Made by a program: the position numbers and the translations under genes. Below are positions 47,475 through 61,479 of a stretch of 64,000 nucleotides of DNA, piece after piece. The DNA lies in contig DASSTS010000050.1 in the NCBI GenBank assembly GCA_035707805.1, positions 15,492-79,491 on the forward strand. Reading direction: 5' to 3'. Numbering within the stretch: the stretch's first letter is position 1; each line of letters opens with the position of its first letter. Origin of the DNA: Castellaniella sp. GTDB taxonomy: Bacteria > Pseudomonadota > Gammaproteobacteria > Burkholderiales > Burkholderiaceae_B. A model generated the notes under the pieces. The model did no database searches. It had not been told where the DNA came from and worked only from the letters and a program-made list of their open reading frames with translations.

Positions 47475-50400
47475 ATGCAAGACAGCCCTGCCCGCATCCC
47501 GTCCCCGAACCTGCCTTCCCTCGATGCCACCCTGGACGCCCTGAAACCCGGGCAGCGCCACGCACAGCCCCGGCCGCCCGGATCCGGCGATGCGCTGTGG
47601 CTGGCCGCCCTGAGCCGGCGCGCGGGGCGGCCGCTGGCGGCGTTCTGCGCCGATCCCCTGGCCGCCCAGCGCCTGGCCGAGGAGATCGGGCTGTTCGATC
47701 CCGAACTGCGGGTGCGCTTCCTGCCCGACTGGGAAACGCTGCCCTATGACAGTTTCTCGCCCCACCAGGACCTGATCTCCGAACGCCTGCGCACACTGCA
47801 CGCGCTGGGCCAGGGTACCGTCGACATCCTGGTGGTGCCGGTCACCACGGCCCTGACGCGGCTGGCGCCGCCCGAGTTCCTCGCTGCCTATACCTTCCGG
47901 TTCCGCCAGGGCGATACCCTCGACGAAGACCGGCTGCGCGCGCAACTGACGCTGGCCAACTACAGCCACGTCACCCAGGTCGGCGCCCCTGGCGAATTCT
48001 GCATCCGCGGCGGCCTGATCGACCTGTTCCCCATGGGCTCGACCCTGCCCTACCGCATCGACCTGTTCGACCGCGAGATCGAATCCATCCGCAGTTTCGA
48101 CATCGACACCCAGCGCAGCCTGTATCCGGTACGCGAGATCGAGCTGCTGCCCGGACGCGAATTCCCCATGGACGAGGCGGCGCGCAACCGGTTCCGGGCG
48201 CGTTTCCGCGAGCTGTTCGAAGGCGATCCGTCCCGGGCGCTGCCCTACAAGGACATCGGCAACGGCATCGCCTTTGCCGGCATTGAGTACTACCTGCCGC
48301 TGTTTTTCGAGCAGACCGCCACCCTGTTCGACTACCTGCCCGACGAGACGCTGGCCGTGACCCTGGGCGATGCGCCCGCCGCCATCAGCCGGTTCACCCA
48401 GGATGCGCACAACCGCTGGCAGTTCCTGAAGTCGGATCCGGAGCGGCCGGTGCTGCCGCTGGACATGCTGTTCCTGGACGACGAGGGCTTTCACGCCGGC
48501 CTGCGCCGGATGGCCCGCCTGGCCCTGGTCAACGACCAGCCCCACCCCGATTTCGCGCCCTGTCCCGACGTGGCCGTCAACCGGCGGGCCGACGACCCCC
48601 TGGCCGGCCTGCGCCGCCACCTGGACGCCAGCGGCTTGCGCACCGCGATCTGCGTGGATTCCGCCGGCCGCCGCGAGACCATTGCCGAACTGCTGAGCGA
48701 TTACCGTCTCAAGCCCGACGCGGCCTTCGACACCTGGCAGGACTACCTGGACAGCGACGCCCGCTTCGCGCTGATCGTCGCGCCCCTGACCGGCGGCTTC
48801 CTGATGCCGCCGGCGGGCCTGGCCATCCTGACCGAGAACGACCTGTATCCCGCCCAGGCGGCCCGGCCCGTCCGCAGCCGCCGCCACCGGTTCGAGCAGC
48901 GCAGCAACGTCGACGCCATGGTGCGCGACCTGGCCGAGCTGCACGTGGGCGACCCGGTGGTGCACGTCCAGCACGGCATCGGCCGCTACCGCGGCCTGGT
49001 CAGCATGGACCTGGGCGACGGCCCCATCGAGCTGCTGCACCTGGAATACGCCCAGGACGCCACGCTGTACGTGCCGGTCTCGCAATTGCACCTGATCGCC
49101 CGCTACAGCGGCGCGGATCCCGACCAGGCCCCCCTGCATCCGCTGGGGTCGGGCCAGTGGGAAAAAACGCGCCGCAAGGCCGCGCGTCAGGCCCGCGACA
49201 CGGCCGCCGAGCTGCTGGCCCTGTACGCCAGCCGCGCCGCGCGCGAGGGCCTGCGCTTCCAGTTCCCGGCCCGCGACTACCAGGCCTTCGCGGAAGGCTT
49301 CGGCTTCGAGGAGACCCCCGACCAGGCGGCCGCCATCATGGCCGTCATCCAGGACATGACCTCCGGGCGCCCCATGGACCGGCTGGTCTGCGGCGACGTG
49401 GGCTTCGGCAAGACCGAGGTTGCGCTGCGGGCCGCCTTCCTGGCGGTCATGAACGGACGCCAGGTCGCCCTGCTGTGCCCCACGACGCTGCTGGCCGAGC
49501 AGCACGCGCAGAACTTCGCCACCCGCTTTGCCGACTGGCCCGTGCGCATCGCCGAGCTGTCGCGCTTTCGCACCGGCAAGGAAACCGCCCGCGCCATCGA
49601 AGGCCTGGCCGACGGATCGGTGGACATCGTCATCGGCACGCACAAGCTGCTGTCCAAGGACGTGCGCTACAAGCAGCTGGGCCTGGTCATCATCGACGAG
49701 GAGCACCGCTTCGGCGTGCGCCAGAAAGAGGCGCTGAAGGCCCTGCGGGCCGAGGTCGACGTGCTGACCCTGACCGCCACCCCGATCCCCCGCACCCTGG
49801 GCATGTCGCTGGAAGGCATCCGCGATTTTTCCGTCATCGCCACCGCCCCGCAAAAGCGTCTGGCGATCAAGACCTTCGTGCGCCGCGAGGATGGCAGCAC
49901 CATCCGCGAAGCCATCCTGCGCGAGCTCAAGCGCGGCGGCCAGGTCTATTTCCTGCACAACGAGGTGGAGACCATCCACAACCGCCGCGCCCGGCTGGAA
50001 GAGCTGGTGCCCGAGGCCCGCATCGCCGTGGCCCACGGCCAGATGGGCGAGCGCGAGCTGGAAGAGGTCATGAAGAGCTTCTACCAGCAGCGCAGCAACG
50101 TGCTGCTGTGCACCACCATCATCGAGACCGGCATCGACATCCCCTCGGCCAACACCATCATCATCCACCGCGCCGACAAGCTCGGGCTGGCGCAGCTGCA
50201 TCAGTTGCGCGGCCGGGTCGGGCGCTCCCACCACCAGGCCTACGCCTATCTGCTCACGCCGGGCGAGGACGCCATCACCGCCAACGCCAAGAAACGCCTG
50301 GAGGCCATCCAGTCCATGGAGGAACTGGGCGCCGGATTCTTCCTGGCCATGCACGACCTGGAGATCCGCGGCAGCGGCGAGGTGCTGGGCGAGTCACAGT

Positions 50401-50954
50401 CGGGCAACATCCAGGAGATCGGCTACAGCCTGTACAACGACATGCTGGCCGCCGCCGTGCGGGCGCTGAAATCCGGCGAGGAGCCGGACCTGGACGCACC
50501 CTTCGGCACCCAGTGCGAGGTCAATCTGCACGCCCCCGCCCTGCTGCCCTCGGACTACTGCGCCGACGTGCAGGCCCGCCTCGGCCTGTACAAGCGGCTG
50601 GCGCACGCCGCCGACGCCGACACGCTGACCGCGATCCAGGAAGAACTGATCGACCGCTATGGCAAGCTGCCCGAGGCCGGCCAGACCCTGCTGTCCCTGC
50701 ACCGCCTGCGCCTGCTGGCCGAATCCCTGGGCATCATCAAGATCGACGCCGGTGAATCGCAAGCGTCCATCCAGTTCTCCGCCCAGCCCAAGGTCGAACC
50801 CCTGCGGGTGATCGAACTGGTGCAGCAGGACCGCCAGGTGCGCCTGAACGGCCCCGACCGCCTGAAGGTCGCCTTCGGCGGCGCGGTGGACGTGCCCGGC
50901 CGCGTGCAGAAACTGCGCGGCCTGCTGAAACGGCTGGGCGGGGCTTCCGCGTAA
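47475..50954 (+). CDS. mfd: Transcription-repair coupling factor
   Basis: WETLPYD, GDVGFGKTEV, DEEHRFG, TATPIPRT, QLRGRVGR and TRCF C-terminal domain. Confidence 0.97.
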   Translation: MQDSPARIPSPNLPSLDATLDALKPGQRHAQPRPPGSGDALWLAALSRRAGRPLAAFCADPLAAQRLAEEIGLFDPELRVRFLPDWETLPYDSFSPHQDLISERLRTLHALGQGTVDILVVPVTTALTRLAPPEFLAAYTFRFRQGDTLDEDRLRAQLTLANYSHVTQVGAPGEFCIRGGLIDLFPMGSTLPYRIDLFDREIESIRSFDIDTQRSLYPVREIELLPGREFPMDEAARNRFRARFRELFEGDPSRALPYKDIGNGIAFAGIEYYLPLFFEQTATLFDYLPDETLAVTLGDAPAAISRFTQDAHNRWQFLKSDPERPVLPLDMLFLDDEGFHAGLRRMARLALVNDQPHPDFAPCPDVAVNRRADDPLAGLRRHLDASGLRTAICVDSAGRRETIAELLSDYRLKPDAAFDTWQDYLDSDARFALIVAPLTGGFLMPPAGLAILTENDLYPAQAARPVRSRRHRFEQRSNVDAMVRDLAELHVGDPVVHVQHGIGRYRGLVSMDLGDGPIELLHLEYAQDATLYVPVSQLHLIARYSGADPDQAPLHPLGSGQWEKTRRKAARQARDTAAELLALYASRAAREGLRFQFPARDYQAFAEGFGFEETPDQAAAIMAVIQDMTSGRPMDRLVCGDVGFGKTEVALRAAFLAVMNGRQVALLCPTTLLAEQHAQNFATRFADWPVRIAELSRFRTGKETARAIEGLADGSVDIVIGTHKLLSKDVRYKQLGLVIIDEEHRFGVRQKEALKALRAEVDVLTLTATPIPRTLGMSLEGIRDFSVIATAPQKRLAIKTFVRREDGSTIREAILRELKRGGQVYFLHNEVETIHNRRARLEELVPEARIAVAHGQMGERELEEVMKSFYQQRSNVLLCTTIIETGIDIPSANTIIIHRADKLGLAQLHQLRGRVGRSHHQAYAYLLTPGEDAITANAKKRLEAIQSMEELGAGFFLAMHDLEIRGSGEVLGESQSGNIQEIGYSLYNDMLAAAVRALKSGEEPDLDAPFGTQCEVNLHAPALLPSDYCADVQARLGLYKRLAHAADADTLTAIQEELIDRYGKLPEAGQTLLSLHRLRLLAESLGIIKIDAGESQASIQFSAQPKVEPLRVIELVQQDRQVRLNGPDRLKVAFGGAVDVPGRVQKLRGLLKRLGGASA

Positions 50955-51002
50955 GCGCTCACAGACAAGACTGTCCCGTTACCCCCATGTGCCTGATAAG
51001 GA

Positions 51003-51024
51003 CGGGCATGCTGACGCATGTCCG
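51003..51024 (+). terminator. Hairpin after mfd
   Basis: CGGGCATGC-TGAC-GCATGTCCG (one G-U pair). Confidence 0.4.
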
Positions 51025-51046
51025 CCCGAATTGCGGCCATTTATTT

Positions 51047-51060
51047 CCCAACCGTTTGGG
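51047..51060 (+). promoter_or_regulatory. Palindrome, putative operator of the DUF4160/DUF2442 pair
   Basis: CCCAA-CCGT-TTGGG directly upstream of the AGGAG RBS. Confidence 0.45.
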
Positions 51061-51072
51061 TTTAGGAGTACC

Positions 51073-51321
51073 ATGAGCACAATCCTCAGGTTCCAGGGTT
51101 ATAGGGTCGTCATTTATGCCAACGATCATCGACCTCCCCACATCCATGTCATCGGTGACGATTCCGAGGCCATCTTCCGGCTCAACTGTCCCCATGGGCC
51201 ACTGGAACCAGCCAGGATCGTCCGACTGGCGCATCACCGCTTATTGCAGATCCAACGGCGACTGGAAACGCACATTCACTTGCTATGCTGGCACTGGAGA
51301 CTGATCCATGACGACGCCTGA
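51073..51321 (+). CDS. DUF4160 family protein (putative toxin)
   Basis: 82 aa; G(Y)RVVIYANDHRPPHIHV signature; AGGAG RBS. Confidence 0.82.
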   Translation: MSTILRFQGYRVVIYANDHRPPHIHVIGDDSEAIFRLNCPHGPLEPARIVRLAHHRLLQIQRRLETHIHLLCWHWRLIHDDA

Positions 51322-51715
51322 CTCCTACCTTGCCCATGGCGAGGATCCGGTTCCGGACACGGGTTACGCAGAGTCCGCGCATTACGACACTGCCTCGCAG
51401 CGGGTGGCGATCACGCTGCGTCATGGGCTCGAATTGATGATTCCGGTTCACCTGCTGCAAGGCTTGGCAGACGCGCCGCCCACATCCCTGTCCCGTATCG
51501 AGATCAGCCCTGCCGGTACCGGCCTGTACTGGCCCGATCTGGACGTCGACCTTTACATCCCTTCATTGATCCAGGGGCTATTCGGCACACGCCGCTGGAT
51601 GGCCAGCCTGATGGGCCAAGCCGGCGGCCGCTCACAGTCCGCCGCCAAGGCCCGGGCCGCACGCGCCAATGGCCGCAAGGGCGGACGGCCGCGCAAGCGG
51701 CCGGACGGCATCTGA
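51308..51715 (+). CDS. DUF2442 family protein (putative antitoxin) with a basic C-terminal tail
   Basis: GTGLYWPDLDVDL signature; tail AARANGRKGGRPRK; overlaps the DUF4160 gene. Confidence 0.82.
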   Translation: MTTPDSYLAHGEDPVPDTGYAESAHYDTASQRVAITLRHGLELMIPVHLLQGLADAPPTSLSRIEISPAGTGLYWPDLDVDLYIPSLIQGLFGTRRWMASLMGQAGGRSQSAAKARAARANGRKGGRPRKRPDGI

Positions 51716-51820
51716 CTGCGGACTCGCCGCCGGATCCTGCGCCGGCCGCCCACGTCGACCCGCCACGCGTAGCGCCAGCAACGACGCGGGTTTTCGATCG
51801 TGCGATTCTCTTGAAATCAA

Positions 51821-51877
51821 TTGTATTGTGAACGATTCGTGTTTAGAATTCGTCAATCAATTGAGAATGATTTTCAT
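51821..51877 (+). promoter_or_regulatory. sigma70 promoter plus Fur box of TBDR1
   Basis: TTGTAT-N17-TAGAAT (51821-51849); 7-1-7 box TGAGAAT-G-ATTTTCA (51862-51876). Confidence 0.8.
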
Positions 51878-51894
51878 ATCGCCAGCCTAAAACC

Positions 51895-54021
51895 ATGCGC
51901 AAACCCACCGACCCTCCCCTCGCCTGCGCGATACTTGCCCTGACCGGACTCATGACGCTGGCGTCGGCGCCCTTGCACGCACAAACGACGGACGCCACGG
52001 ACAATACCGCGACGCAGCCCGCCTCCACGTCGTCCGGCGCGGAGGCGAATGGCCAGGCCGTCAGTGAACTGGACGCGGTGAAGGTGGTCGGCTCGGTCGA
52101 CGATCTGCAAAGCCTGGATTTCTACGCTCCCAATTCCAGCGCCGTGATCAGCGCCAAGGACATCGAGGCGCAGGGCGCCCGCAAGCTCGACGAAGCCCTG
52201 CAGTACCAGGCGGGCATTCTCAGCGAACCCTATGGCGCGGACAACAAGGTCGAATGGTTCAAGATTCGGGGTTTCGAGGCGTCCACAGCGTTGGATGGCA
52301 CCCCGACGACTCCAAACGGATTCTTCGTCTGGAAGCCGGAAATTTTCGGCGTCGAATCAGTCGAGGTGTTGAAAGGGCCAAATTCCCTGGAGTTCGGTGC
52401 GTCCAAGTCGGGAGGCGTCGTCAATCTGGTGACCAAGCGCCCACACAAGGAAGAATCCCTGCTGATGAACCTGGAGGCCGGCCACCGCAATCGCCTGGGC
52501 CTGGGCATCGACTACAACGGGATTGCCAACGACGAGGGTAATGTCTATTACCGCATCGTCGCCCAGGCCCGCCGCGCCGACAGCATGCAGCGCGAGACGG
52601 ACATGAAGAGCTATTACCTGGCGCCCAGCCTGACTGTCGATTTCACCGATCGCACATCGCTGACCCTGCTGACCAGCATCCAACGCGAGGATGGCCGTCC
52701 GACCAACGGATTCCTGCCGGCCTATGGTTCGCTCGTCAGTACTCCCGACGGCCGCATCGACCGCCGCCTGAACGCAGGCGAACCGGGGTTCGATCACTTG
52801 CAGCGCACGCAGGTCGGTGCCGGTTGGCTGCTCACGCATAAGCTGAATCCGGACTGGACCTTCACACAGAACTACAAGTTTTCGTACCTGGATATCGATC
52901 AGCAAAATGTGTTTGCGTATGCCGCAGAAAATGGCCGGGAACTCAAACGCGGTTATACGCTCACCGACGGCATCACTCGAAATCACTACCTCGACCACCG
53001 CCTCAAAGGCCACGTACGCCTGAGCGACTCGGTAGAAATCCTGCCCGTCATCGGCATTGACTACCTCAAATCCAACACGTCCGGCCGCAACAACGGCTTC
53101 GGCGGGGCGCCGAACCTGGACATGTTCACCCCCGTCTACGGCAAGTCCTTTCCGGTGAGCGCGACCCCCTACGACATCGACTCCCGGCAGTTGGGCCTGT
53201 ACGCCTCCGCTCAGGCACGTGTCGGCTCGCACTGGAATTTCAACGCCGGCATCCGCCACGACCGCGCCAAGAGCGACGGTTTCACCGCCGGAAAGAATTC
53301 TGGCTACGATGTCAGCAACAACAGCGTGAATGCCGGTGTCATGTACATCAGCGACTATGGCATTTCACCGTACATCAGCTATTCGGAGTCGTTTGAACCT
53401 CAAGCAGGTGCTGACGGTTACGGCAATGCTTACGTGCCCTTCATCGGCAAGCAAAAGGAAATCGGGGTCAAACTGGAGCCCGAGTGGCTGGATGGCACCG
53501 TAACCCTGGCCTATTTCGACATTGAGCAAAAGAACTCATTGATGCCGGATCTCGTCACACAAGTACAAAAGCAAGGCGGGAAACAAACCAACAAAGGCGT
53601 GGAATTGCAAGGCAACTTCCACATCACGCCGCGCACCGGCATGCGTATTTCCTATACCTACAACCATGCCCGCCAGGACATCAGCGAAACACAAACGATC
53701 CGCACCCCGCTGATCCCCCGACACCAGGCCAGCCTCTGGGTCGATCACCGCTTCGACCTACCTGCGGGCGGCGCACTGACCGTCGGCGCTGGCGCGCGCT
53801 ACAACGGCCCGACCGAGGACCAGCAATACAATCGCGGAGCGATCGTCCCCAGTTACACGCTGTTCGACCTGATGGCACGCTACCAGATCGACCGTAACTG
53901 GTCTGTGCAGATGAACGCGCGCAACTTGACCAATAGAACGTACGTCAGCGGCTGCGACGCCTACTGCTACTACGGCGGCGAACGCACCATCGACATGCAG
54001 CTGCAATATCAATGGCGCTGA
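51895..54021 (+). CDS. TonB-dependent siderophore receptor (FhuA/FoxA-like)
   Basis: Signal peptide, TonB box ELDAVKV, plug IRGF...VEVLKGPNS...GGVVNLVTKRP, C-terminal NLTNRTYVSGC..CYYG..R and YQWR. Confidence 0.92.
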   Translation: MRKPTDPPLACAILALTGLMTLASAPLHAQTTDATDNTATQPASTSSGAEANGQAVSELDAVKVVGSVDDLQSLDFYAPNSSAVISAKDIEAQGARKLDEALQYQAGILSEPYGADNKVEWFKIRGFEASTALDGTPTTPNGFFVWKPEIFGVESVEVLKGPNSLEFGASKSGGVVNLVTKRPHKEESLLMNLEAGHRNRLGLGIDYNGIANDEGNVYYRIVAQARRADSMQRETDMKSYYLAPSLTVDFTDRTSLTLLTSIQREDGRPTNGFLPAYGSLVSTPDGRIDRRLNAGEPGFDHLQRTQVGAGWLLTHKLNPDWTFTQNYKFSYLDIDQQNVFAYAAENGRELKRGYTLTDGITRNHYLDHRLKGHVRLSDSVEILPVIGIDYLKSNTSGRNNGFGGAPNLDMFTPVYGKSFPVSATPYDIDSRQLGLYASAQARVGSHWNFNAGIRHDRAKSDGFTAGKNSGYDVSNNSVNAGVMYISDYGISPYISYSESFEPQAGADGYGNAYVPFIGKQKEIGVKLEPEWLDGTVTLAYFDIEQKNSLMPDLVTQVQKQGGKQTNKGVELQGNFHITPRTGMRISYTYNHARQDISETQTIRTPLIPRHQASLWVDHRFDLPAGGALTVGAGARYNGPTEDQQYNRGAIVPSYTLFDLMARYQIDRNWSVQMNARNLTNRTYVSGCDAYCYYGGERTIDMQLQYQWR

Positions 54022-55334
54022 GCCCGGATCCGTCCTGGCGCCGTCCCTGCCCTGCGGAGTCCGTCTCATGGACTCCGCAGGGCCTTTTCACGGTCGTATT
54101 CCTGGGCATTGCCGCCGGCCTGCAGTTGACGGACATGGGCCTGCAGGCCGTGTCGCTGTCCGCCATCCAGCGCAGCTTCGGCGTCGGCGACGCCGCCCTG
54201 GGCGCCCTGCAGGGCCTGGCCGGTGTCCTGATCGGCAGCGCTCTGGCGATCCCGCTGGCGCGCTTCGCCGACCGGTTCTCGCGTAAACGCGTACTCTTGT
54301 GCCTCATCGCCGCCTCGTCCGCCCTGATGGGGCTGAGCGCCGTCGCGCACCAGTTTCCGCTGTTCTTCATCGGCCGCTCGGCGGCCGGCATAACCGAATT
54401 CGCCATGGTGCCGCTGGTCTATTCCATGATCCCCGACCTGGCGCCGGAACGGCACCGGGTGGCGGCCAATCTCGGTTTCGCGGCCCTGGTGGCTGCCGGG
54501 GCGAGCGCCGGCTTCTACTTCAGCGGCGCCATCCTGTCCGCAGCGGACGCCTGGTTCGCCTGGCACACGGACCCCTGGCGCAAGGGCTTTCTGCTGCTCG
54601 GTCTGGCCGGCCTGCCCCTGCTGGCGCTGGGCGTGCTGACGGCCGATCCCGCGCGGCATCTGAGCGCGGAAGACCGCGCGGCCCATGGTTCGCTGCTGGC
54701 CTTCCTGCGGCGGCGCTGGCGTCCCATCGGCCTGTTCGTCGGGACGGCCGGCTGCCTGATCACCGCCGTGCAGGCGCTCAACCAGTTGATCGCCCTGGCG
54801 CTGGAGCGCCGGTTCCAGGCAGCGCCCGCCGACATCGGCCACGCCATGGGGCTGATCATTCTGCTCACCAGCGTCGGCTGCCTGCCCGTGGCCGGCGTGC
54901 TGGACCGCGCCCTGGCCCGGCGCGTCGGCCAGGCGGCACGGCCCCTGATCATGGGCTTGTCCGTGGCCGTCGCCATCCCGGTGCTTCTCCTGCTGACGTC
55001 CATGCGCACACTCGACCAGGGCTTCGTCGCCGTCGGCCTCTTCCTGTTCATGACCTGCACGGCCAATGCGCTGGTGCCGACCATGTTGCAGGACTTGGCG
55101 CCCGCCTCCCTGCGGGCGCGCTGCTTCGCGATCTGGAGCTTCGTCGTCTCGCTGTTCGGGGCCAGCGGTCCCTTGATCGCCGGCACCTTGTCGGACTGGT
55201 TCTTCGACAAGCACCTGCTGAACGCCATCGCCGCCGTCGCCGTCCCCGCCTTGGCTGTGTCGATGGGGTGCGCCCTGTGGTCCGTGCTACGGATCCGGCG
55301 GGAACGCGCACCGACCGAAAGCTGGCCCGCCTAG
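54012..55334 (+). CDS. MFS transporter
   Basis: About 12 TM segments; motif A ARFADRFSRK; GR in TM4; overlaps the TBDR1 stop. Confidence 0.87.
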   Translation: MALSPDPSWRRPCPAESVSWTPQGLFTVVFLGIAAGLQLTDMGLQAVSLSAIQRSFGVGDAALGALQGLAGVLIGSALAIPLARFADRFSRKRVLLCLIAASSALMGLSAVAHQFPLFFIGRSAAGITEFAMVPLVYSMIPDLAPERHRVAANLGFAALVAAGASAGFYFSGAILSAADAWFAWHTDPWRKGFLLLGLAGLPLLALGVLTADPARHLSAEDRAAHGSLLAFLRRRWRPIGLFVGTAGCLITAVQALNQLIALALERRFQAAPADIGHAMGLIILLTSVGCLPVAGVLDRALARRVGQAARPLIMGLSVAVAIPVLLLLTSMRTLDQGFVAVGLFLFMTCTANALVPTMLQDLAPASLRARCFAIWSFVVSLFGASGPLIAGTLSDWFFDKHLLNAIAAVAVPALAVSMGCALWSVLRIRRERAPTESWPA

Positions 55335-57469
55335 GAACCCGCTGGCTCGACCGGCGGCACGCGCACCCCCGCGCAACGGCAGGCGAACGCCCAGCACAAG
55401 GCCGCCTGGCCGAACAGGCTGCCCCGATCGTCGCTCTGCTGATGGCCGCTGTCCGGATCCAGCACCAGCACCGCCGGCCGGTCACCAGTGCTTCGGTGGC
55501 GGATGTTCGCCACCAGCTTGGCGGGTTCCCAATAGGGCACGCGGTCGTCCTTCAGCCCGGCCGTGCATAATACCGGCGGATAGTCCGCCTCCCCCACGTT
55601 CTCGTACGGCGAAATGGCCGCGATGTGGTCGTAGGCGAAGGGGTCGGCCAGCGGATCGCCCCAGTCCGGACGCAACAGGGGCACCAGCGGATGATCGGCA
55701 TCGCTCATGGTGTTCAGCATGTCGACGAAGGGCACCTGCGCGATCACCCCCGCCCAGAGCGCCGGCTCCATGTTCATGGCGCCGCACACCAGCAGTCCGC
55801 CGGCCGAGATTCCCTGGGCGACGATCCCGCCGGGGGCGGCATAGCCGATGTCCAGCAGATGGCGGGCGCAGGCGATGAAGTCCGTCATCGAATTGCGTTT
55901 CTTTTCGCGGCACCCGTCCTGGTACCAGCGCCAGCCTTTCTCCGATCCGCCGCGCACGTGCGCAATAGCGTAGCGGAAACCGGCATCGACCAGCACGGTC
56001 GCCGGCAGCGAAAAAACGGGTTCACTGGCAATGCCGTAGGCGCCATAGCCGGTCAGCAGGAGGGGCTGCGGCGCATCCGGACCCGCGTCCCGGCGGGACA
56101 ACACGGTGATCGGAACGGTTTCGCCATCGGACGCCCTGGCGTACAAACGCTCCACCCGATAAGCATCCCGGTCGAACCCGGCGGGCTCGGCCTGGCCGGC
56201 CACGACGCGCCGCCCCGTGGCCAGGTCGATATCCAGCCAGCACGGCGGACTGGCCGGCGCCTGGTGCACGATTCGCACCAGGCGGGCGTCATACGGCTGC
56301 GAGGGAACGAGTTCGATGGAATACGCGGGTTCGTCGAAGCCCACGACGGTCTCCCGGCCATCGGGATGGCTCAGCACGAGGCGACGCAGCCCTTGCACGC
56401 GTTCAAGCCGCGCCAGCGCCTGGGCAAAGGGGCGGATGGCGATGATGGGCACACCGGCGCGATGAGGCACCAGTTCGTCGCGCACCGCCAGCGTCGCCGG
56501 ATCCAGGCGCAGCAGCTTGCGGTCGATGGCGCCGCCCGCGTCGGTGAGCATCAACAGCGCGCCATGCCACTCGTCCACCTCGTACCGGGTGCCGCGCTGG
56601 CGCGGCCGCACCAGCCGGGGCGGCTCGGTCTCGGCGCCGGCGGCGATCAGGCGCACCTCGCCGATGTCCGGCCCGGCCAGCGTCAAGGTGACGAAACCGC
56701 CGGCGGCCGTGCGCGCCACCTGCATGAAAATGGCCGGATCCTTCTCTTCGTAGACCAGCACCGCCTCGCCACCCTCGACGGGGGAGCGGTACAACCGGGT
56801 CGGCCGGCTGTGCTCGTCTCGCCAGATCCAGAACAGGTATCGGGACGAAGGCGAAAAGGCAAAGCCGCCATAGCCGAAGGCATCGGAGGACACCACGGTG
56901 CGCAGGATGCCTTGCTCCATGTCCAGCACGCAGATCCGGTGCCGGTCGTCGCCGATCACGTCCTCTGCCCAGGCGAAGTAGCGGTCGTCGGGACTGGGCT
57001 GGTGATCCGTCGCACGATAGTAGGCGTGCCCCCGGGCTCGTGCGGCCTCGTCCAGGAGCAACAGGGGCTCACCGCCCGCCAGCGCGCGCGTGAAGACGCG
57101 CCGCGATCCGCCCGCGGAAAGCCGGGATCCATAGCACCACCCCGCCTGCGCGGCGGGCTGTGGCTCGCGGATCTCGGGCGCGCGGGCCGCCATGCGTTCG
57201 CGCAGTGCTGCGGCATCCCCCGCCAGCGGCTGCAGGACGGCATCCGCGTACTGCATCTCGGCTTCCAGGTGCTCCCGCAACGGCGGGGGCAGGTTCCCCA
57301 GCGTGCGCGTGCCCGAGGGCGGAATGAACTTCATCCAGGCATAGGCGTCGTTGCGATGGCGCCCGAGCTGGTGGATTTCATGATCCTGGCGTGGCGCCAC
57401 CGGAGCGGGGACTTCCGGCCAGGCGGCGGAGGAAGGGGCTGAGGGTCTGGAAGGCATAGTGAGCAGCAT
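55331..57469 (-). CDS. S9A oligopeptidase B (PtrB)-like serine peptidase
   Basis: DAYAWM N-terminus, beta-propeller region, GYGAYG, HVRGG, and triad GISAGG / DDRV / SGH. No signal peptide. Confidence 0.88.
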   Translation of the reverse strand: MLLTMPSRPSAPSSAAWPEVPAPVAPRQDHEIHQLGRHRNDAYAWMKFIPPSGTRTLGNLPPPLREHLEAEMQYADAVLQPLAGDAAALRERMAARAPEIREPQPAAQAGWCYGSRLSAGGSRRVFTRALAGGEPLLLLDEAARARGHAYYRATDHQPSPDDRYFAWAEDVIGDDRHRICVLDMEQGILRTVVSSDAFGYGGFAFSPSSRYLFWIWRDEHSRPTRLYRSPVEGGEAVLVYEEKDPAIFMQVARTAAGGFVTLTLAGPDIGEVRLIAAGAETEPPRLVRPRQRGTRYEVDEWHGALLMLTDAGGAIDRKLLRLDPATLAVRDELVPHRAGVPIIAIRPFAQALARLERVQGLRRLVLSHPDGRETVVGFDEPAYSIELVPSQPYDARLVRIVHQAPASPPCWLDIDLATGRRVVAGQAEPAGFDRDAYRVERLYARASDGETVPITVLSRRDAGPDAPQPLLLTGYGAYGIASEPVFSLPATVLVDAGFRYAIAHVRGGSEKGWRWYQDGCREKKRNSMTDFIACARHLLDIGYAAPGGIVAQGISAGGLLVCGAMNMEPALWAGVIAQVPFVDMLNTMSDADHPLVPLLRPDWGDPLADPFAYDHIAAISPYENVGEADYPPVLCTAGLKDDRVPYWEPAKLVANIRHRSTGDRPAVLVLDPDSGHQQSDDRGSLFGQAALCWAFACRCAGVRVPPVEPAGS

Positions 57470-57491
57470 TCTTTCATATTTCCTTCACAAT

Positions 57492-57548
57492 TTGAACTAT
57501 GAACGATTCTTGTTTAGAATCCAAATCCTAATTGAGAATGATTTTCAT
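57492..57548 (+). promoter_or_regulatory. sigma70 promoter plus Fur box of TBDR2 (divergent from the peptidase)
   Basis: TTGAAC-N17-TAGAAT (57492-57520); TGAGAATGATTTTCA (57533-57547). Confidence 0.8.
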
Positions 57549-57575
57549 GACTTTTATCGTTTAAGGGAGATTTGC

Positions 57576-59822
57576 GTGGAAGACACTCTAGAGACCCGGA
57601 CGGGCAAGCTGGCCGGCGGCCTGGCCACGGCGCTGGCCACCCCGGGCCTGTTCCTGCTGCCGCAGGCGGCCCAGGCCCAGAACACAGACCCGGCCCAGCT
57701 CAGCCCCATCCGGGTCCAGGGTGAGAATCCCGCGCCCTTCCTGGTCAAGGAGTCGGCCTCCGACAAGTTCACCGCGCCCCTGCTGGACACGGCCAAGTCC
57801 GTGCAGGTCATCCCGAAGGAACTGATCCAGAGCCAGGCCGCCACCACCCTGACCGACGTGCTGCGCAACTCTCCGGGCATCAGCTTCGGCGCCGGCGAAG
57901 GCGGCAATCCGCTGGGCGACCGTCCCTTCATCCGCGGCTATGACGCCCAGTCCAGCACCTTCGTCGACGGCATGCGCGACATCGGCGCGACGTCCCGCGA
58001 GGTCTTCAACCTGGAACAGGTCGAAGTCATCAAGGGCGCGGACGGCGCCTATGCGGGCCGGGGCGGCGCGGGCGGCAGCATCGACCTGATCAGCAAGACC
58101 GCGAAACTGCGCGACTTCACCGACGTATCGGCCGGATTCGGCACGGCCAAGTATTTTCGCCAGACCGTCGACAGCAACTGGAAGCTGGGCGAGTCGACCG
58201 CATTTCGCCTGAATGCCATGAACCACAGCCAGGACGTCGACGGCCGCGATGCCGTCGACTACAAGCGCTGGGGCGTGGCGCCGACGATCTCCTTCGGCCT
58301 GGGCACGCCGACGCGCGTGACGCTGAGCTATTTCCACATGGAATCGGACGACACGCCGGATAGCGGGATTCCGTATACCTATTCGAGCAACCCCAAAGCG
58401 CACCGCAGCCCAATTGACGTCGACCGCGACAACTTCTACGGTCTGGACAGCGATTACCGCCGCACGCGCAACGACATGGGTACGTTGCGCATCGAGCACG
58501 ACTTCAGCGACCGGCTGACCCTGCGCAACCAGACCCGCTACACGCGCGCCACGCAACGCTATGTCTGGACCAATCCGGATGACAGCCAAGGCAACATCGA
58601 CAGGGGCATGGTCTTTCGCAATGCCAAGAGCCGTGACAGCCAAGTCAGCACCTGGGCCAACCAGACGGAACTCCAGGGAGAGCTCCAAACGGGCACACTC
58701 AAGCACCGATTCCTGACAGGGATCGAACTGTCCGTCGAGGAGGGGCGCAAAAGCTCTCTTGACGTCGTCAGGACGGATGGCCTCACCAGAATCGGCGGCA
58801 AGTGGGTGTGCCCCGGCACCGGCGCGGTCTCCAACTACAATTGCACGAGCTTGTCCAATCCCAACCCCAGCGATCCCTGGGTCAACACAGGCAGCGGCGG
58901 CCCTGGAGCCCCCACCTACTCGCGCACTCTGACGAAATCGATCTATGGATTCGACACCATCGAATTCAATGAGCACTGGCAGACCACCCTGGGTCTGCGC
59001 GTGGATGACTACAACACCCGTCTGGACCAGCCCGCCAGCGAAGGCGTCTATCGCCACGACACGCTGTTCAATTACCAGTTGGGGCTGGTCTACAAGCCCG
59101 CCTCCAACGGCAGCGTCTACGTGTCCTACGGCACTTCCTCCACGCCGGCCGGCGCCACGCTGGGCGAAGGCAGCGAAACGCAAGGCCTGACCCCCGGGCG
59201 CGGCGGCGTCGGCCCCAATGCGGCCGACATGGCTCCCGAGAAGAACCGCACCCTGGAACTGGGCACCAAGTGGGACTTCCTGGATGGCCGCCTGGGCCTG
59301 ACCGCTGCCGTGTTCCGCGTCGAGACCACCAATGCGCGGATCACGCTGCCTGACAATACCTATGCCATGGCGGGCGACAAGCGTGTCGATGGCTTCGAGC
59401 TGGGCTTCTCGGGCAACGTCACGCCCAAATGGCAAGTCTTCGGCGGCTACACCTACCTCAAGAGCCGGATCGGCGATGACGGCAAGACGGGCTCGGCATC
59501 CGATGAAGGCAACGCCTTCCCCAATACGCCGGAGCACAGCTTCAGCCTCTGGAGCACCTACGCCTTCACGCCGAAGCTGACTGCCGGGGCGGGCGCCTAT
59601 TACGTCGGCAAACAGTACGGCAACACCGCCAACACCACCAGCATCCCGTCCTACTGGCGTTTCGACGCCATGGTGGGCTACCAGTTCAACAAGACGGTGG
59701 ACCTGCAGATCAACGTGAACAACCTGACGGACGAGACCTACTACACCCAGGCCTACACCACGCACTATGCGGCCATCGCCCCGGGACGCTCGGCGGTTGC
59801 GACGCTGAACCTGCACTTCTGA
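57576..59822 (+). CDS. TonB-dependent catecholate-type receptor (Fiu/PiuA-like)
   Basis: GEGGNPLGDRPFIRGYD, FVDGMRD and EVIKG plug motifs; C-terminal APGRS...LHF; AAGGGAG RBS before GTG. Confidence 0.9.
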   Translation: MEDTLETRTGKLAGGLATALATPGLFLLPQAAQAQNTDPAQLSPIRVQGENPAPFLVKESASDKFTAPLLDTAKSVQVIPKELIQSQAATTLTDVLRNSPGISFGAGEGGNPLGDRPFIRGYDAQSSTFVDGMRDIGATSREVFNLEQVEVIKGADGAYAGRGGAGGSIDLISKTAKLRDFTDVSAGFGTAKYFRQTVDSNWKLGESTAFRLNAMNHSQDVDGRDAVDYKRWGVAPTISFGLGTPTRVTLSYFHMESDDTPDSGIPYTYSSNPKAHRSPIDVDRDNFYGLDSDYRRTRNDMGTLRIEHDFSDRLTLRNQTRYTRATQRYVWTNPDDSQGNIDRGMVFRNAKSRDSQVSTWANQTELQGELQTGTLKHRFLTGIELSVEEGRKSSLDVVRTDGLTRIGGKWVCPGTGAVSNYNCTSLSNPNPSDPWVNTGSGGPGAPTYSRTLTKSIYGFDTIEFNEHWQTTLGLRVDDYNTRLDQPASEGVYRHDTLFNYQLGLVYKPASNGSVYVSYGTSSTPAGATLGEGSETQGLTPGRGGVGPNAADMAPEKNRTLELGTKWDFLDGRLGLTAAVFRVETTNARITLPDNTYAMAGDKRVDGFELGFSGNVTPKWQVFGGYTYLKSRIGDDGKTGSASDEGNAFPNTPEHSFSLWSTYAFTPKLTAGAGAYYVGKQYGNTANTTSIPSYWRFDAMVGYQFNKTVDLQINVNNLTDETYYTQAYTTHYAAIAPGRSAVATLNLHF

Positions 59823-60745
59823 TGGACGCGGGCGACGCGCTGGACAGCCACGCCATCAACCAGGCGGATCCTTCCGTCCTGGCCGACGAGCTGCGGCGCA
59901 TCCTGGCCGGCCCGCCCGGACAGGCGGCCGCCACGCTGCGGGCGGCGGCGGAGGGCGGCGTGGTCCAGGCGCAGCTGGTCTACGGCCAGTGGCTGCTGGA
60001 CGGCCGGGGCGTCGCCTGCGATCCCGCGCAGGCGGTGCAGTGGTTCGAGCATGCCAGCCGCCACGGCGATCCCATGGCCCTGAACATGCTGGGCCAATGC
60101 CACGCCCACGGCTGGGGCGTCCCCCGCAATCCTTTCATGGCCGCCTACTGGTTCCGGCTGGCCGCCATCGGCGGCCTGGACTGGGGCATGTACAACTACG
60201 CCACCGCCCTGGCCCTGGGCCAGGGCATCCCGACCGACCGGACCGCGGCGCTCGGGTGGTTCCGCAAGGCGGCCGCGCTGGGCCACGCCAAATCGCTCAA
60301 CATGATCGGCAGCTTCTACGAAGACGGCTGGGTGGTCGACCCGGACGAGAACCAGGCGCTGGACTGGTACCTGCGGGCTGCCGAAGGCGGTGATTTCCGC
60401 GGCCAGTTCAACACGGCCCGCCTGCTGCTGGCACGCGGGCGGCTCGAGGAAGCCCTGCGCTGGCTGGACCGGGTGCCCGACACCGCCACCCCTGCCTTTC
60501 TGGGCCAAGCCGCCGACTGGCTGCAGTCCTGTCTGGCGTCCTTCCGGGGTCCGTCGAACCCGGTCCCTGGGCCGGACATCACCGCCCGGCTGATGCCGCT
60601 CATCCACCATTATCGGCAACATCCGGGGACGCCTGCGCCCGGCGCCACACTGTCGGCATCCGGGGCACGGCAGCACGGGGACCCCTCATCGCACCATCCT
60701 TCCGCGTCCTCCGGGACGCCATCCCCGACATCACCACCATGCTGA
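59822..60745 (+). CDS. Sel1-like repeat protein
   Basis: Repeated A...LG..Y..G.GV..D...A..WF..AA units. Confidence 0.85.
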   Translation: MDAGDALDSHAINQADPSVLADELRRILAGPPGQAAATLRAAAEGGVVQAQLVYGQWLLDGRGVACDPAQAVQWFEHASRHGDPMALNMLGQCHAHGWGVPRNPFMAAYWFRLAAIGGLDWGMYNYATALALGQGIPTDRTAALGWFRKAAALGHAKSLNMIGSFYEDGWVVDPDENQALDWYLRAAEGGDFRGQFNTARLLLARGRLEEALRWLDRVPDTATPAFLGQAADWLQSCLASFRGPSNPVPGPDITARLMPLIHHYRQHPGTPAPGATLSASGARQHGDPSSHHPSASSGTPSPTSPPC

Positions 60746-61479
60746 TCACGATCCCAGACCTGCTGAGCGCCAGGCAAGTGCGGCAATGCCGCCAGGCGCT
60801 GGAATCCGCCCCCTGGACGGACGGCCGTGCCACGGCGGGACATGTCGCCGCCCACCTGAAGGCCAATCGCCAACTGGCCCTGGACGACCCCATCGGACTG
60901 CAGATCGGCAGCCTGATCGTCCAGGCGCTGGGCCGGCACCCCGTCTTCCAGTCCGCCGCCCTGCCCGCCCATATCCTGCCCCCGCGCTTCAATCGCTACG
61001 AGGGCGGCGAGCACTACGGCTTTCACATCGACAACGCGCTCTTTCGCGTGCCGGCCAGCGGCCCGACCCAACCGCCACCGGACGCGCAGACGCCCGGCAT
61101 GCCCGCCGCAGCGCCGGCCTCCGGCCTGCTGCGCACCGACATCTCCACCACCGTGTTCTTCAGCGACCCCGACGAATACGAGGGCGGAGAGCTGATCATC
61201 CAGGACACCTACGGCGAGCAGCGCGTGAAGCTGCCCGCGGGCCAGGCCGTCATCTATCCCGGCACCAGCCTGCACCGCGTCGCCCCCGTCACCCGGGGCG
61301 TGCGCTACGGATCGTTTTTCTGGACCCAGAGCCTGGTGCGCGACGACGCCCGGCGCAGCATCCTGCTGCAGCAGGATGTCGCCATCCAGCGCCTCATCCA
61401 GTCCGGCGCCGATGCCGACACCGTCAGCCAGTTGACCGGCGTGTACCACAATCTGTTGCGTCTCTGGGCGGAGCCCTGA
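60739..61479 (+). CDS. piuC: PKHD-type Fe(II)/2-oxoglutarate hydroxylase (PiuC/YbiX)
   Basis: WTDGRATAG, FNRY, HID, RTDIS, YEGGEL, SLHRV.PVTRG.R and YHNLLRLW motifs. Confidence 0.9.
   Translation: MLITIPDLLSARQVRQCRQALESAPWTDGRATAGHVAAHLKANRQLALDDPIGLQIGSLIVQALGRHPVFQSAALPAHILPPRFNRYEGGEHYGFHIDNALFRVPASGPTQPPPDAQTPGMPAAAPASGLLRTDISTTVFFSDPDEYEGGELIIQDTYGEQRVKLPAGQAVIYPGTSLHRVAPVTRGVRYGSFFWTQSLVRDDARRSILLQQDVAIQRLIQSGADADTVSQLTGVYHNLLRLWAEP

Follow-up and report, generated by a model that had tools for sequence, protein, structure and literature searches.

Analysis of a 64,000-nucleotide stretch of the genome of Castellaniella sp. (GenBank assembly GCA_035707805.1, contig DASSTS010000050.1, positions 15,492 to 79,491), here called the window, indicated that three neighbouring genes, encoding a TonB-dependent receptor (TBDR1), a permease of the major facilitator superfamily (MFS) and a peptidase of family S9A, form one unit that is gained and lost together. 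The peptidase resembles oligopeptidase B (OpdB) but belongs to a separate clade with an altered specificity pocket, and linkage to a receptor gene is a property of this clade and not of OpdB in general. We lean, slightly more than we doubt it, towards the view that the unit is a horizontally mobile, co-inherited cassette for the uptake and hydrolysis of a xenosiderophore. Such a three-part module had been proposed in an earlier, sequence-only reading of the window, and most of what that reading described was borne out, with the exceptions given below.

The unity of the three genes is evident from their distribution. Among 24 other Castellaniella genomes, an orthologue of the peptidase was found in 10 (68-79% identity), and the same 10 have the MFS gene and TBDR1 adjacent and in the same order, while the other 14 are without all three. 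When 200 family genomes were sampled evenly from 51 genera, the peptidase and the MFS permease occurred in the same 19 genomes (6 genera) and no genome had only one of them; the two genes lie tail to tail within ~100 nt in 18 of these 19, the last pair being split across contig ends. No p-value is given for the 19/19 co-occurrence, because related genomes are not independent. The module is also present in Pollutimonas, in metagenome-assembled genomes (MAGs) of Alcaligenaceae, in Pseudothauera nasutitermitis (Zoogloeaceae) and on a 761-kb plasmid of Diaphorobacter (Comamonadaceae), where a siderophore-interacting reductase gene is divergent from the receptor gene. Sandaracinobacter and a Sphingomonadaceae MAG, both of the Sphingomonadales, have kept the peptidase-MFS pair together with an AraC regulator, and their receptor is another FhuA-like protein, 31% identical to TBDR1 and in a different orientation. 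The genes flanking the module vary between loci, and thus the module moves as a cassette. This gene-neighbourhood comparison, with adjacency maintained across genera, classes and a plasmid, agrees with the module as it was first proposed.

The peptidase clade, which we call 'E-less', consists of OpdB-like S9A peptidases in which Glu576 and Glu578 of OpdB (Salmonella numbering) are replaced. Linkage to receptors was compared using a profile built from 30 receptors, and a receptor within 6 kb was scored wherever the locus had 6 kb of flank or more. A TonB receptor was found in 22 of the 23 E-less loci versus none of the 47 canonical OpdB loci from the same scans; a metagenome scan with the clade alignment, run on generic S9 patterns, had picked up mostly such canonical loci, which served as the negative control. 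None of these 47 loci has the MFS gene either. Close homologues of the peptidase are therefore linked to receptor and MFS genes, a linkage on which the sequence-only reading had staked its module.

Both profiles place the peptidase in family S9A (PF02897, Peptidase_S9_N, 135 bits with a cut-off of 24; PF00326, Peptidase_S9, 171 bits with a cut-off of 22.6). It has an N-terminal seven-bladed propeller domain and a C-terminal catalytic domain, and its alignment with solved OpdB structures is full-length (residues 23-697, E 9e-97). The catalytic triad is intact, S555 (in GISAGG), D641 and H676 corresponding to S532, D617 and H652 of Serratia OpdB, and all three residues are invariant in 25 clade members. 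Neither a signal peptide nor a longer upstream reading frame was found for the peptidase, and its true start is probably the ATG at 57457. It is the sole S9A gene found in the genome. The NCBIfam equivalog for PtrB (NF007511) gave 307.5 bits with a cut-off of 1313, and the enzyme is thus not OpdB sensu stricto (EC 3.4.21.83). In the alignment, L599 and P601, with R600 between them, take the place of Glu576 and Glu578, which we take to be the residues conferring Arg/Lys specificity on OpdB (Morty et al. 2002), and the motif DADHPLVPLLRPDWGDP stands where OpdB has its acidic S1 site. Judged by these replacements, the peptidase has lost the acidic, basic-residue-binding pocket of OpdB, and its earlier description as an oligopeptidase B of altered specificity is borne out as regards the pocket. 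OpdB itself (PtrB/OpdB, MEROPS S9A; Serratia proteamaculans 7YWP/7NE7, Leishmania 2XE4, Trypanosoma brucei 4BP8) has the same architecture of propeller and alpha/beta-hydrolase, the same GxSxGG serine and triad, and is likewise cytoplasmic. The identity between them is, however, only ~31-34%; here Glu576 is replaced by L/F, Glu578 by P and Glu579 by Asp, and GHGG by GHQ, and unlike OpdB the peptidase is an accessory gene linked to a receptor.

The clade is a discrete one. An exhaustive search of representatives gave one full-length 50%-identity cluster at 58% identity, the next being at 42% or less, and in a quick maximum-likelihood tree (IQ-TREE) the E-less clade split from the canonical forms with a Shimodaira-Hasegawa-like approximate likelihood ratio test (SH-aLRT) value of 99. 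All of the E-less members sampled carry D-A-D-H-P-L-V-P-L-(L/F)-R-P-D-W-G-D-P, the corresponding stretch in 115 canonical representatives being P-L-T-x-x-E-x-x-E-W-G-N-P. Position 599 is always L or F across the clade, and H593, R600 and P601 are invariant. There are 35 clade-specific positions, including H593, V596, R600, D602, K640, D642 and Q677.

Two cellular locations are found within the clade. The basal and most numerous members have twin-arginine (Tat) signal peptides and come mostly from Sphingomonadales (Sphingopyxis, Erythrobacter, Sphingomonas and Alteriqipengyuania), and in an order-level sample a Tat-type homologue proved rare, being found in only 3 of 251 Sphingomonadales genomes. 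In most Tat-type loci (L023 being different) the peptidase gene is head to head with a TonB receptor gene and an MFS gene is absent; near it are genes for an AraC regulator, an Abhydrolase_3 protein of the hormone-sensitive-lipase/acetyl-esterase type, an FMN_bind_2 protein and usually an HDAC-like deacetylase. The members without a signal are nested together as one clade (SH-aLRT 100), and each of those with enough flank has the MFS gene tail to tail. Three transitional loci (L006, L015 and L026) combine the cytoplasmic peptidase and the MFS gene with AraC, esterase or FMN_bind_2 genes. The loss of export and the gain of the permease coincide, a coherent pattern of the kind expected if the enzyme acts on the cargo of the receptor.

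A more distant E-less branch occurs in Luteimonas, Pseudoxanthomonas, Pseudoduganella, Massilia and Niveispirillum, with a locus of the order receptor-amidase-peptidase and a second, FhuA-like receptor. In Niveispirillum sp. KHB5.9 the order is AraC-esterase-receptor-peptidase-amidase-PepSY_TM, and Niveispirillum is presumably the genus of the desferrioxamine degrader formerly named Azospirillum irakense. PepSY_TM (FoxB-like) genes were found in three related loci, and we take such proteins, FoxB among them, to be siderophore reductases. Pseudoduganella umbonata has an operon of receptor, APC permease, amidase, an FMN_bind_2::Abhydrolase_3 fusion and peptidase. The two fused domains, separate neighbours in most loci, are here joined in one protein of 549 aa (L127:5359-7008), a Rosetta-stone hint that both may act together. 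Repeats containing GGGCCA lie between receptor and peptidase in AraC-associated loci (L021:6743-7001, L027:7600-8000, L024, L028, L126, L015 and L006) and are possibly the operator to which the linked AraC regulator binds; a conserved element, TTGCAAC-T(G/A)ATT(A/C)TCAC, is moreover common to L015 and L006.

The promoter of TBDR1 gives the first link to iron. Two exact copies of TGAGAATGATTTTCA are found in the window, both in the same orientation and each just 5' of a receptor gene, the first 19 nt ahead of the ATG of TBDR1 and the second 28 nt ahead of the GTG of a Fiu-like receptor gene (Table 1). Each copy is embedded in a common block of ~49 nt that also holds the half-element TGAACGATTC(G/T)TGTTTAGAAT, found genome-wide at these two sites only. 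A scan with the E. coli 19-mer Fur consensus gave only window matches with 5 mismatches, and the 7-1-7 motif was used instead. Compared to the 7-1-7 consensus TGATAATNATTATCA, TGAGAATGATTTTCA has 2 mismatches. Sites with at most 3 mismatches to this consensus number 30 genome-wide versus 2-8 in shuffles, and comparable sites lie just 5' of tonB, 5' of a gene for a ferritin-like protein and at a pair of AMP-ligase and PPTase genes, which may be a locus for siderophore biosynthesis in another part of the genome. The genome has one gene of the FUR family. We regard the Fur box in the TBDR1 promoter as credible in silico because of the close match, the excess over shuffles, the sites at iron genes and the FUR gene. 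Boxes of a related kind were observed 5' of TBDR1 orthologues in five other loci (L002, L003, L014, L015 and L025) and are visible also in L005.

The second box had been read as lying in the divergent promoter region of the peptidase. It is present and identical, but its assignment to the peptidase had to be given up: a Fiu promoter block of ~75 nt including the box is kept ahead of Fiu in six Castellaniella genomes that have no TBDR1, MFS or peptidase gene, and in 11 loci in which the peptidase has some other neighbour than Fiu, no Fur-like box was found in the 250 nt ahead of it. The box is thus the own box of the Fiu operon, and a Fur box belonging to the peptidase was rejected as a candidate. 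What the sequence-only reading had missed is that this box fronts the Fiu-like receptor gene heading a Fiu-Sel1-PiuC operon. In the same six module-free genomes the Fiu gene comes directly after Mfd, with or without the DUF2442 gene, and the module has therefore been inserted with Mfd/DUF2442 on one side and the Fiu promoter on the other. Of the 24 congeners, 10 have the peptidase module and 14 a close Fiu orthologue (at least 72% identity), which can be present where the module is absent. In the window the TBDR1 promoter nearly duplicates the Fiu promoter block, and direct promoter repeats thus bracket the inserted module; the near-copy was not seen in the TBDR1 upstream stretches of five other loci, L002 being uncertain among these as its true start is further upstream. 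The bracketing repeats suggest promoter capture or recombination at the insertion.

TBDR1 is a member of the TIGR01783 siderophore-receptor subfamily (306.2 bits, cut-off 223.5), with a Plug domain (62.7 bits) and a barrel (188.5 bits). Its best likenesses at equivalog level are PRK14050, FhuA and FoxA, each under its own cut-off (328 bits for FhuA with 803 needed, 308 for FoxA with 1300 needed), so that it resembles these receptors without being an orthologue. Orthologues of TBDR1, at 60-80% identity, adjoin the MFS gene in every betaproteobacterial locus. The earlier picture of a Fur-boxed, FhuA/FoxA-like receptor gene overlapping an MFS gene thus held.

The permease matches MFS_1 (PF07690) over residues 32-357 with 99.1 bits (gathering score 33.4). 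The ATG of its gene lies within ATGGCGCTGA, overlapping the stop of TBDR1, an arrangement that suggests translational coupling. At the other end, the stops of the MFS and peptidase genes overlap in the palindrome CTAG (55331-55334), and the two genes converge, as had been described, on a peptidase that is cytoplasmic as far as the missing signal peptide tells. Elsewhere the two genes end 0-100 nt apart, with little space if any for a terminator, and overlapping antisense transcripts of the two genes are therefore likely. The permease had no match in the PDB, and among the NCBIfam siderophore-permease models its only likeness was one of 26 bits to the bacillibactin exporter. A tblastn search of 72,556 plasmid records (E<=1e-8) gave 4 matches only and none in Sinorhizobium. 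The permease seems to belong to a narrow family, with no close relative widespread in plasmid records.

From these data we suggest that iron limitation would lift Fur repression at the TBDR1-MFS operon, as the box implies. The FhuA/FoxA-like receptor, judged by its family likeness, would take a ferric hydroxamate-type xenosiderophore, amide- or peptide-linked, to the periplasm, and the strict pairing of the permease with the cytoplasmic form of the enzyme suggests that the MFS protein would move the ligand across the inner membrane. There the cytoplasmic peptidase, with its neutral/basic S1 site (L599, R600, P601 and H593), would cut an amide bond of the ligand, and this cleavage may help the release of iron and/or the recycling or consumption of the ligand. 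The link to iron comes from the Fur box, from the recruitment of FhuA/FoxA-like receptors twice independently, from the siderophore-interacting reductase gene on the plasmid and from the PepSY_TM genes in the three related loci.

Import followed by hydrolysis is known from the FepA/FepBCDG/Fes and IroN/IroD systems for enterobactin and salmochelin. The module as proposed follows the same plan, in which a TonB receptor under Fur control and a transporter of the inner membrane serve a hydrolase in the cytoplasm that breaks open the backbone of the ligand. However, Fes and IroD belong to a different family, of esterases that attack ester bonds, and are served by ABC transport, whereas the module has an S9A enzyme predicted to be an amide hydrolase and a single MFS permease. 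Routes with a single permease include FptA-FptX for pyochelin, RhtA-RhtX for rhizobactin 1021 and FiuA-FiuB-FiuC for ferrichrome in Pseudomonas aeruginosa, where FiuC is a precedent for chemical modification of ferrichrome in the cytoplasm. These routes likewise consist of a TonB receptor and one proton-driven permease with no periplasmic binding protein, a likeness of architecture, and the partner enzyme FiuC is an acetylase, in contrast to the peptidase of the module. Both the hydrolase family and the MFS family would, to judge from these comparisons, be new in such a role. In the literature on PtrB-like enzymes with a TonB-dependent receptor, an MFS permease and a siderophore, we found nothing relevant.

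The sequence-only reading knew of no characterised module employing a PtrB-like enzyme in this way, and this has to be qualified. In Vibrio, the ptrB-hvtA/hutR operon has a PtrB-family gene co-transcribed with a TonB haem receptor gene under iron/Fur control, and an MFS gene is not reported (PMC6813434). The operon is a partial precedent in that a PtrB-family gene goes with an iron-controlled TonB receptor; it differs in that the receptor is one for haem and the enzyme is of another clade. The PtrB-like proteins of Vibrionaceae that we examined (Salinivibrio, Vibrio), which are not confirmed as products of the ptrB-hvtA/hutR operon, have the canonical PLTTNEYDEWGNP and a lipoprotein signal, and are thus exported. 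No receptor was found at the Salinivibrio and Vibrio loci by tblastn with the TBDR panel, which a distant haem receptor could escape.

Two enzymes known from older work are comparable in chemistry. Mesorhizobium loti LU has been described to have a serine peptidase-like enzyme that degrades deferrioxamine B, as summarised, citing Zaya 1998, in the 2018 genome announcement of the strain, which names no gene for it (PMC5805875). A ferrichrome A peptidase was described from Pseudomonas FC-1 (Villavicencio and Neilands 1965, as cited in PMC11800396). Both are serine-type hydrolases cutting amide or peptide bonds of hydroxamate siderophores, and this chemistry fits the module; they are, however, known by activity and have no known sequence, so that their link to the E-less clade is hypothetical. 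We know of no gene assignment for either enzyme. It is possible, though we would not presume it, that the E-less clade is the gene family behind the siderophore-backbone hydrolysis described from 1965 to 1998 (ferrichrome peptidase, deferrioxamine-degrading serine hydrolase) and binds a neutral N-acyl-N-hydroxy-ornithine/hydroxamate side chain where OpdB binds Arg/Lys. It would then act in the periplasm as Tat forms accompanied by an esterase, deacetylase or amidase, or in the cytoplasm as forms coupled to MFS permeases. A speculative rationale for the pocket goes with it: OpdB binds long basic side chains, and an enzyme derived from it that binds neutral N-acyl-N-hydroxy-ornithine would therefore be expected to lose the acidic pair.

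Several observations weigh against a xenosiderophore cassette. The substrate is placed among hydroxamate or peptidic xenosiderophores by family likeness alone, and the direction of transport by the MFS permease is not readable from sequence. Plasmid pSA1 of Novosphingobium resinovorum carries an MFS orthologue (60% identity) but not the peptidase. In this locus (L111, 1289020-1308294) the MFS gene adjoins PEP-utilising/PPDK-like genes, a di-haem peroxidase gene and a FecI/FecR/receptor set. The peptidase, having no Fur box of its own in the 11 loci, may not be iron-regulated. The loss of the signal and the gain of the MFS gene are a single evolutionary event, and their coincidence is therefore a coherent pattern and not a statistic. 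In the Tat-type loci, no Fur box was found in the receptor-peptidase intergenic regions, the receptors fall under the siderophore-subfamily cut-off, and the peptidase keeps the catabolic-looking company of AraC, esterase, HDAC-like and amidase genes. Because of these three features, the ancestral system may have been a catabolic one that consumed its ligand and had no part in iron acquisition.

The same features carry the strongest of the alternatives, namely that the cassette imports a non-iron organic compound, for instance a natural product that is acylated or resembles a peptide, as a source of carbon or nitrogen, and that the Castellaniella copy has merely gained an iron-regulated promoter. 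The relatives in AraC clusters with Abhydrolase_3, FMN_bind_2 and an HDAC-like deacetylase or amidase, once with an APC (amino-acid) permease, the lack of Fur boxes in their intergenic regions and the receptors under the cut-off would all agree with this, and the use of the siderophore as a source of carbon is known from siderophore degraders (PMC5805875). Nevertheless, we hold it to be unlikely, as the receptor is FhuA/FoxA-like in two independent MFS-type lineages with Fur-like boxes ahead, a siderophore-interacting reductase gene stands beside the module on the Diaphorobacter plasmid, and the window has no esterase, deacetylase or AraC genes.

A protective function, in which the peptidase inactivates, or the MFS permease exports, a toxic peptide or sideromycin entering via the receptor, seems to us distinctly improbable. 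Likenesses of the permease to MFS_1 profiles include drug-efflux families, with weak scores throughout, and enzymes of the OpdB type are generally known to cleave antimicrobial peptides. However, protection leaves unexplained why the periplasmic Tat forms dispense with the MFS permease, as well as the translational coupling of the MFS and receptor genes and the joint gain and loss of receptor and peptidase. Mere chance adjacency, with an ordinary housekeeping oligopeptidase B standing between two iron-regulated operons, could draw on the second Fur box being that of the Fiu operon and on the peptidase being the sole S9A enzyme in the genome, but it is already largely refuted by the co-occurrence data and we give it very little credence: the peptidase gene is an accessory one that 14 of 24 congeners and 181 of 200 family genomes lack, it was never found without the MFS gene, the OpdB specificity residues are lost, and canonical OpdB showed receptor linkage in 0/47 loci. 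Least credible of all is a lasso-peptide isopeptidase working with the receptor as in alphaproteobacterial astexin-type loci, an analogy that the sequence-only reading drew from S9-family isopeptidases being linked with TonB receptors in lasso loci and that we abandoned, since all 45 PDB matches (E<=1e-3) are OpdB, PREPL, prolyl oligopeptidase or peptide cyclase with no chain of the AtxE2/SpI-IsoP type among them, and lasso maturation genes were seen in none of the Pfam-annotated neighbourhoods.

The genome that hosts the xenosiderophore cassette we favour is that of a Castellaniella (Alcaligenaceae) of 2.74 Mb with 68% G+C and 88% completeness, in which only three TonB-dependent receptors were detectable. 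The third was located by tblastn at C22:19800-21749, downstream of a Fur-boxed beta-propeller gene. Between positions 51821 and 57548 no siderophore biosynthesis, ABC transporter or binding-protein genes were seen, in agreement with the sequence-only reading. The G+C content dips to 0.59-0.64 across the TBDR1 and Fiu-like receptor regions (51000-54000 and 57500-59500), the neighbouring genes having 0.68-0.75, which fits either a foreign origin or a composition specific to receptor genes.

Table 1. Features at the locus, as window positions, and other Fur-like boxes of the same genome (G000), as contig and position
Feature	Position	Strand	Remarks
Mfd	47475-50954		first in gene order at the locus
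DUF2442 protein	51308-51715		left edge of the module insertion
TBDR1 promoter block	51829-51878	+	Fur-like box 51862-51876
TBDR1, TonB-dependent siderophore receptor	51895-54021	+	708 aa; FhuA/FoxA-like (hydroxamate-type) group
MFS permease	54012-55334	+	440 aa
S9A peptidase	55331-57469	-	712 aa; 'E-less' OpdB-like clade
Second promoter block	57500-57548	+	of the Fiu-like operon; Fur-like box 57533-57547
Fiu-like catecholate-type receptor	57576-59822	+	GTG start
Sel1-repeat protein	59822-60745		Fiu-Sel1-PiuC operon
PiuC/YbiX-type Fe(II) dioxygenase	60739-61479		Fiu-Sel1-PiuC operon
Fur-like box	C24:176013		tonB
Fur-like box	C19:120262		ferritin-like gene downstream of rpoN
Fur-like box	C44:40004		AMP-ligase/PPTase pair
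Fur-like box	C22:23215		5' of the beta-propeller gene

The release of iron from hydroxamate and peptidic xenosiderophores and the turnover of these ligands in nature are poorly understood, and several siderophore-degrading activities are, to our knowledge, without a gene. What emerges here is a distinct clade of S9A peptidases that is linked to receptors, has a remodelled specificity pocket and has two cellular locations matching the presence and absence of an inner-membrane permease. The E-less peptidase offers a concrete gene candidate within a compact system of three genes and a small genome in which only three TonB receptors were detected. It seems that a switch of specificity within a housekeeping protease family has accompanied its recruitment to a transport cassette that crosses bacterial classes and plasmids, and the probable part of an OpdB relative of family S9A in the import and cutting of a chelator is a use of the family that has so far gone uncharacterised. 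If the E-less clade does hydrolyse siderophore backbones, it would represent a destructive form of siderophore piracy, by a pathway widespread among proteobacteria.

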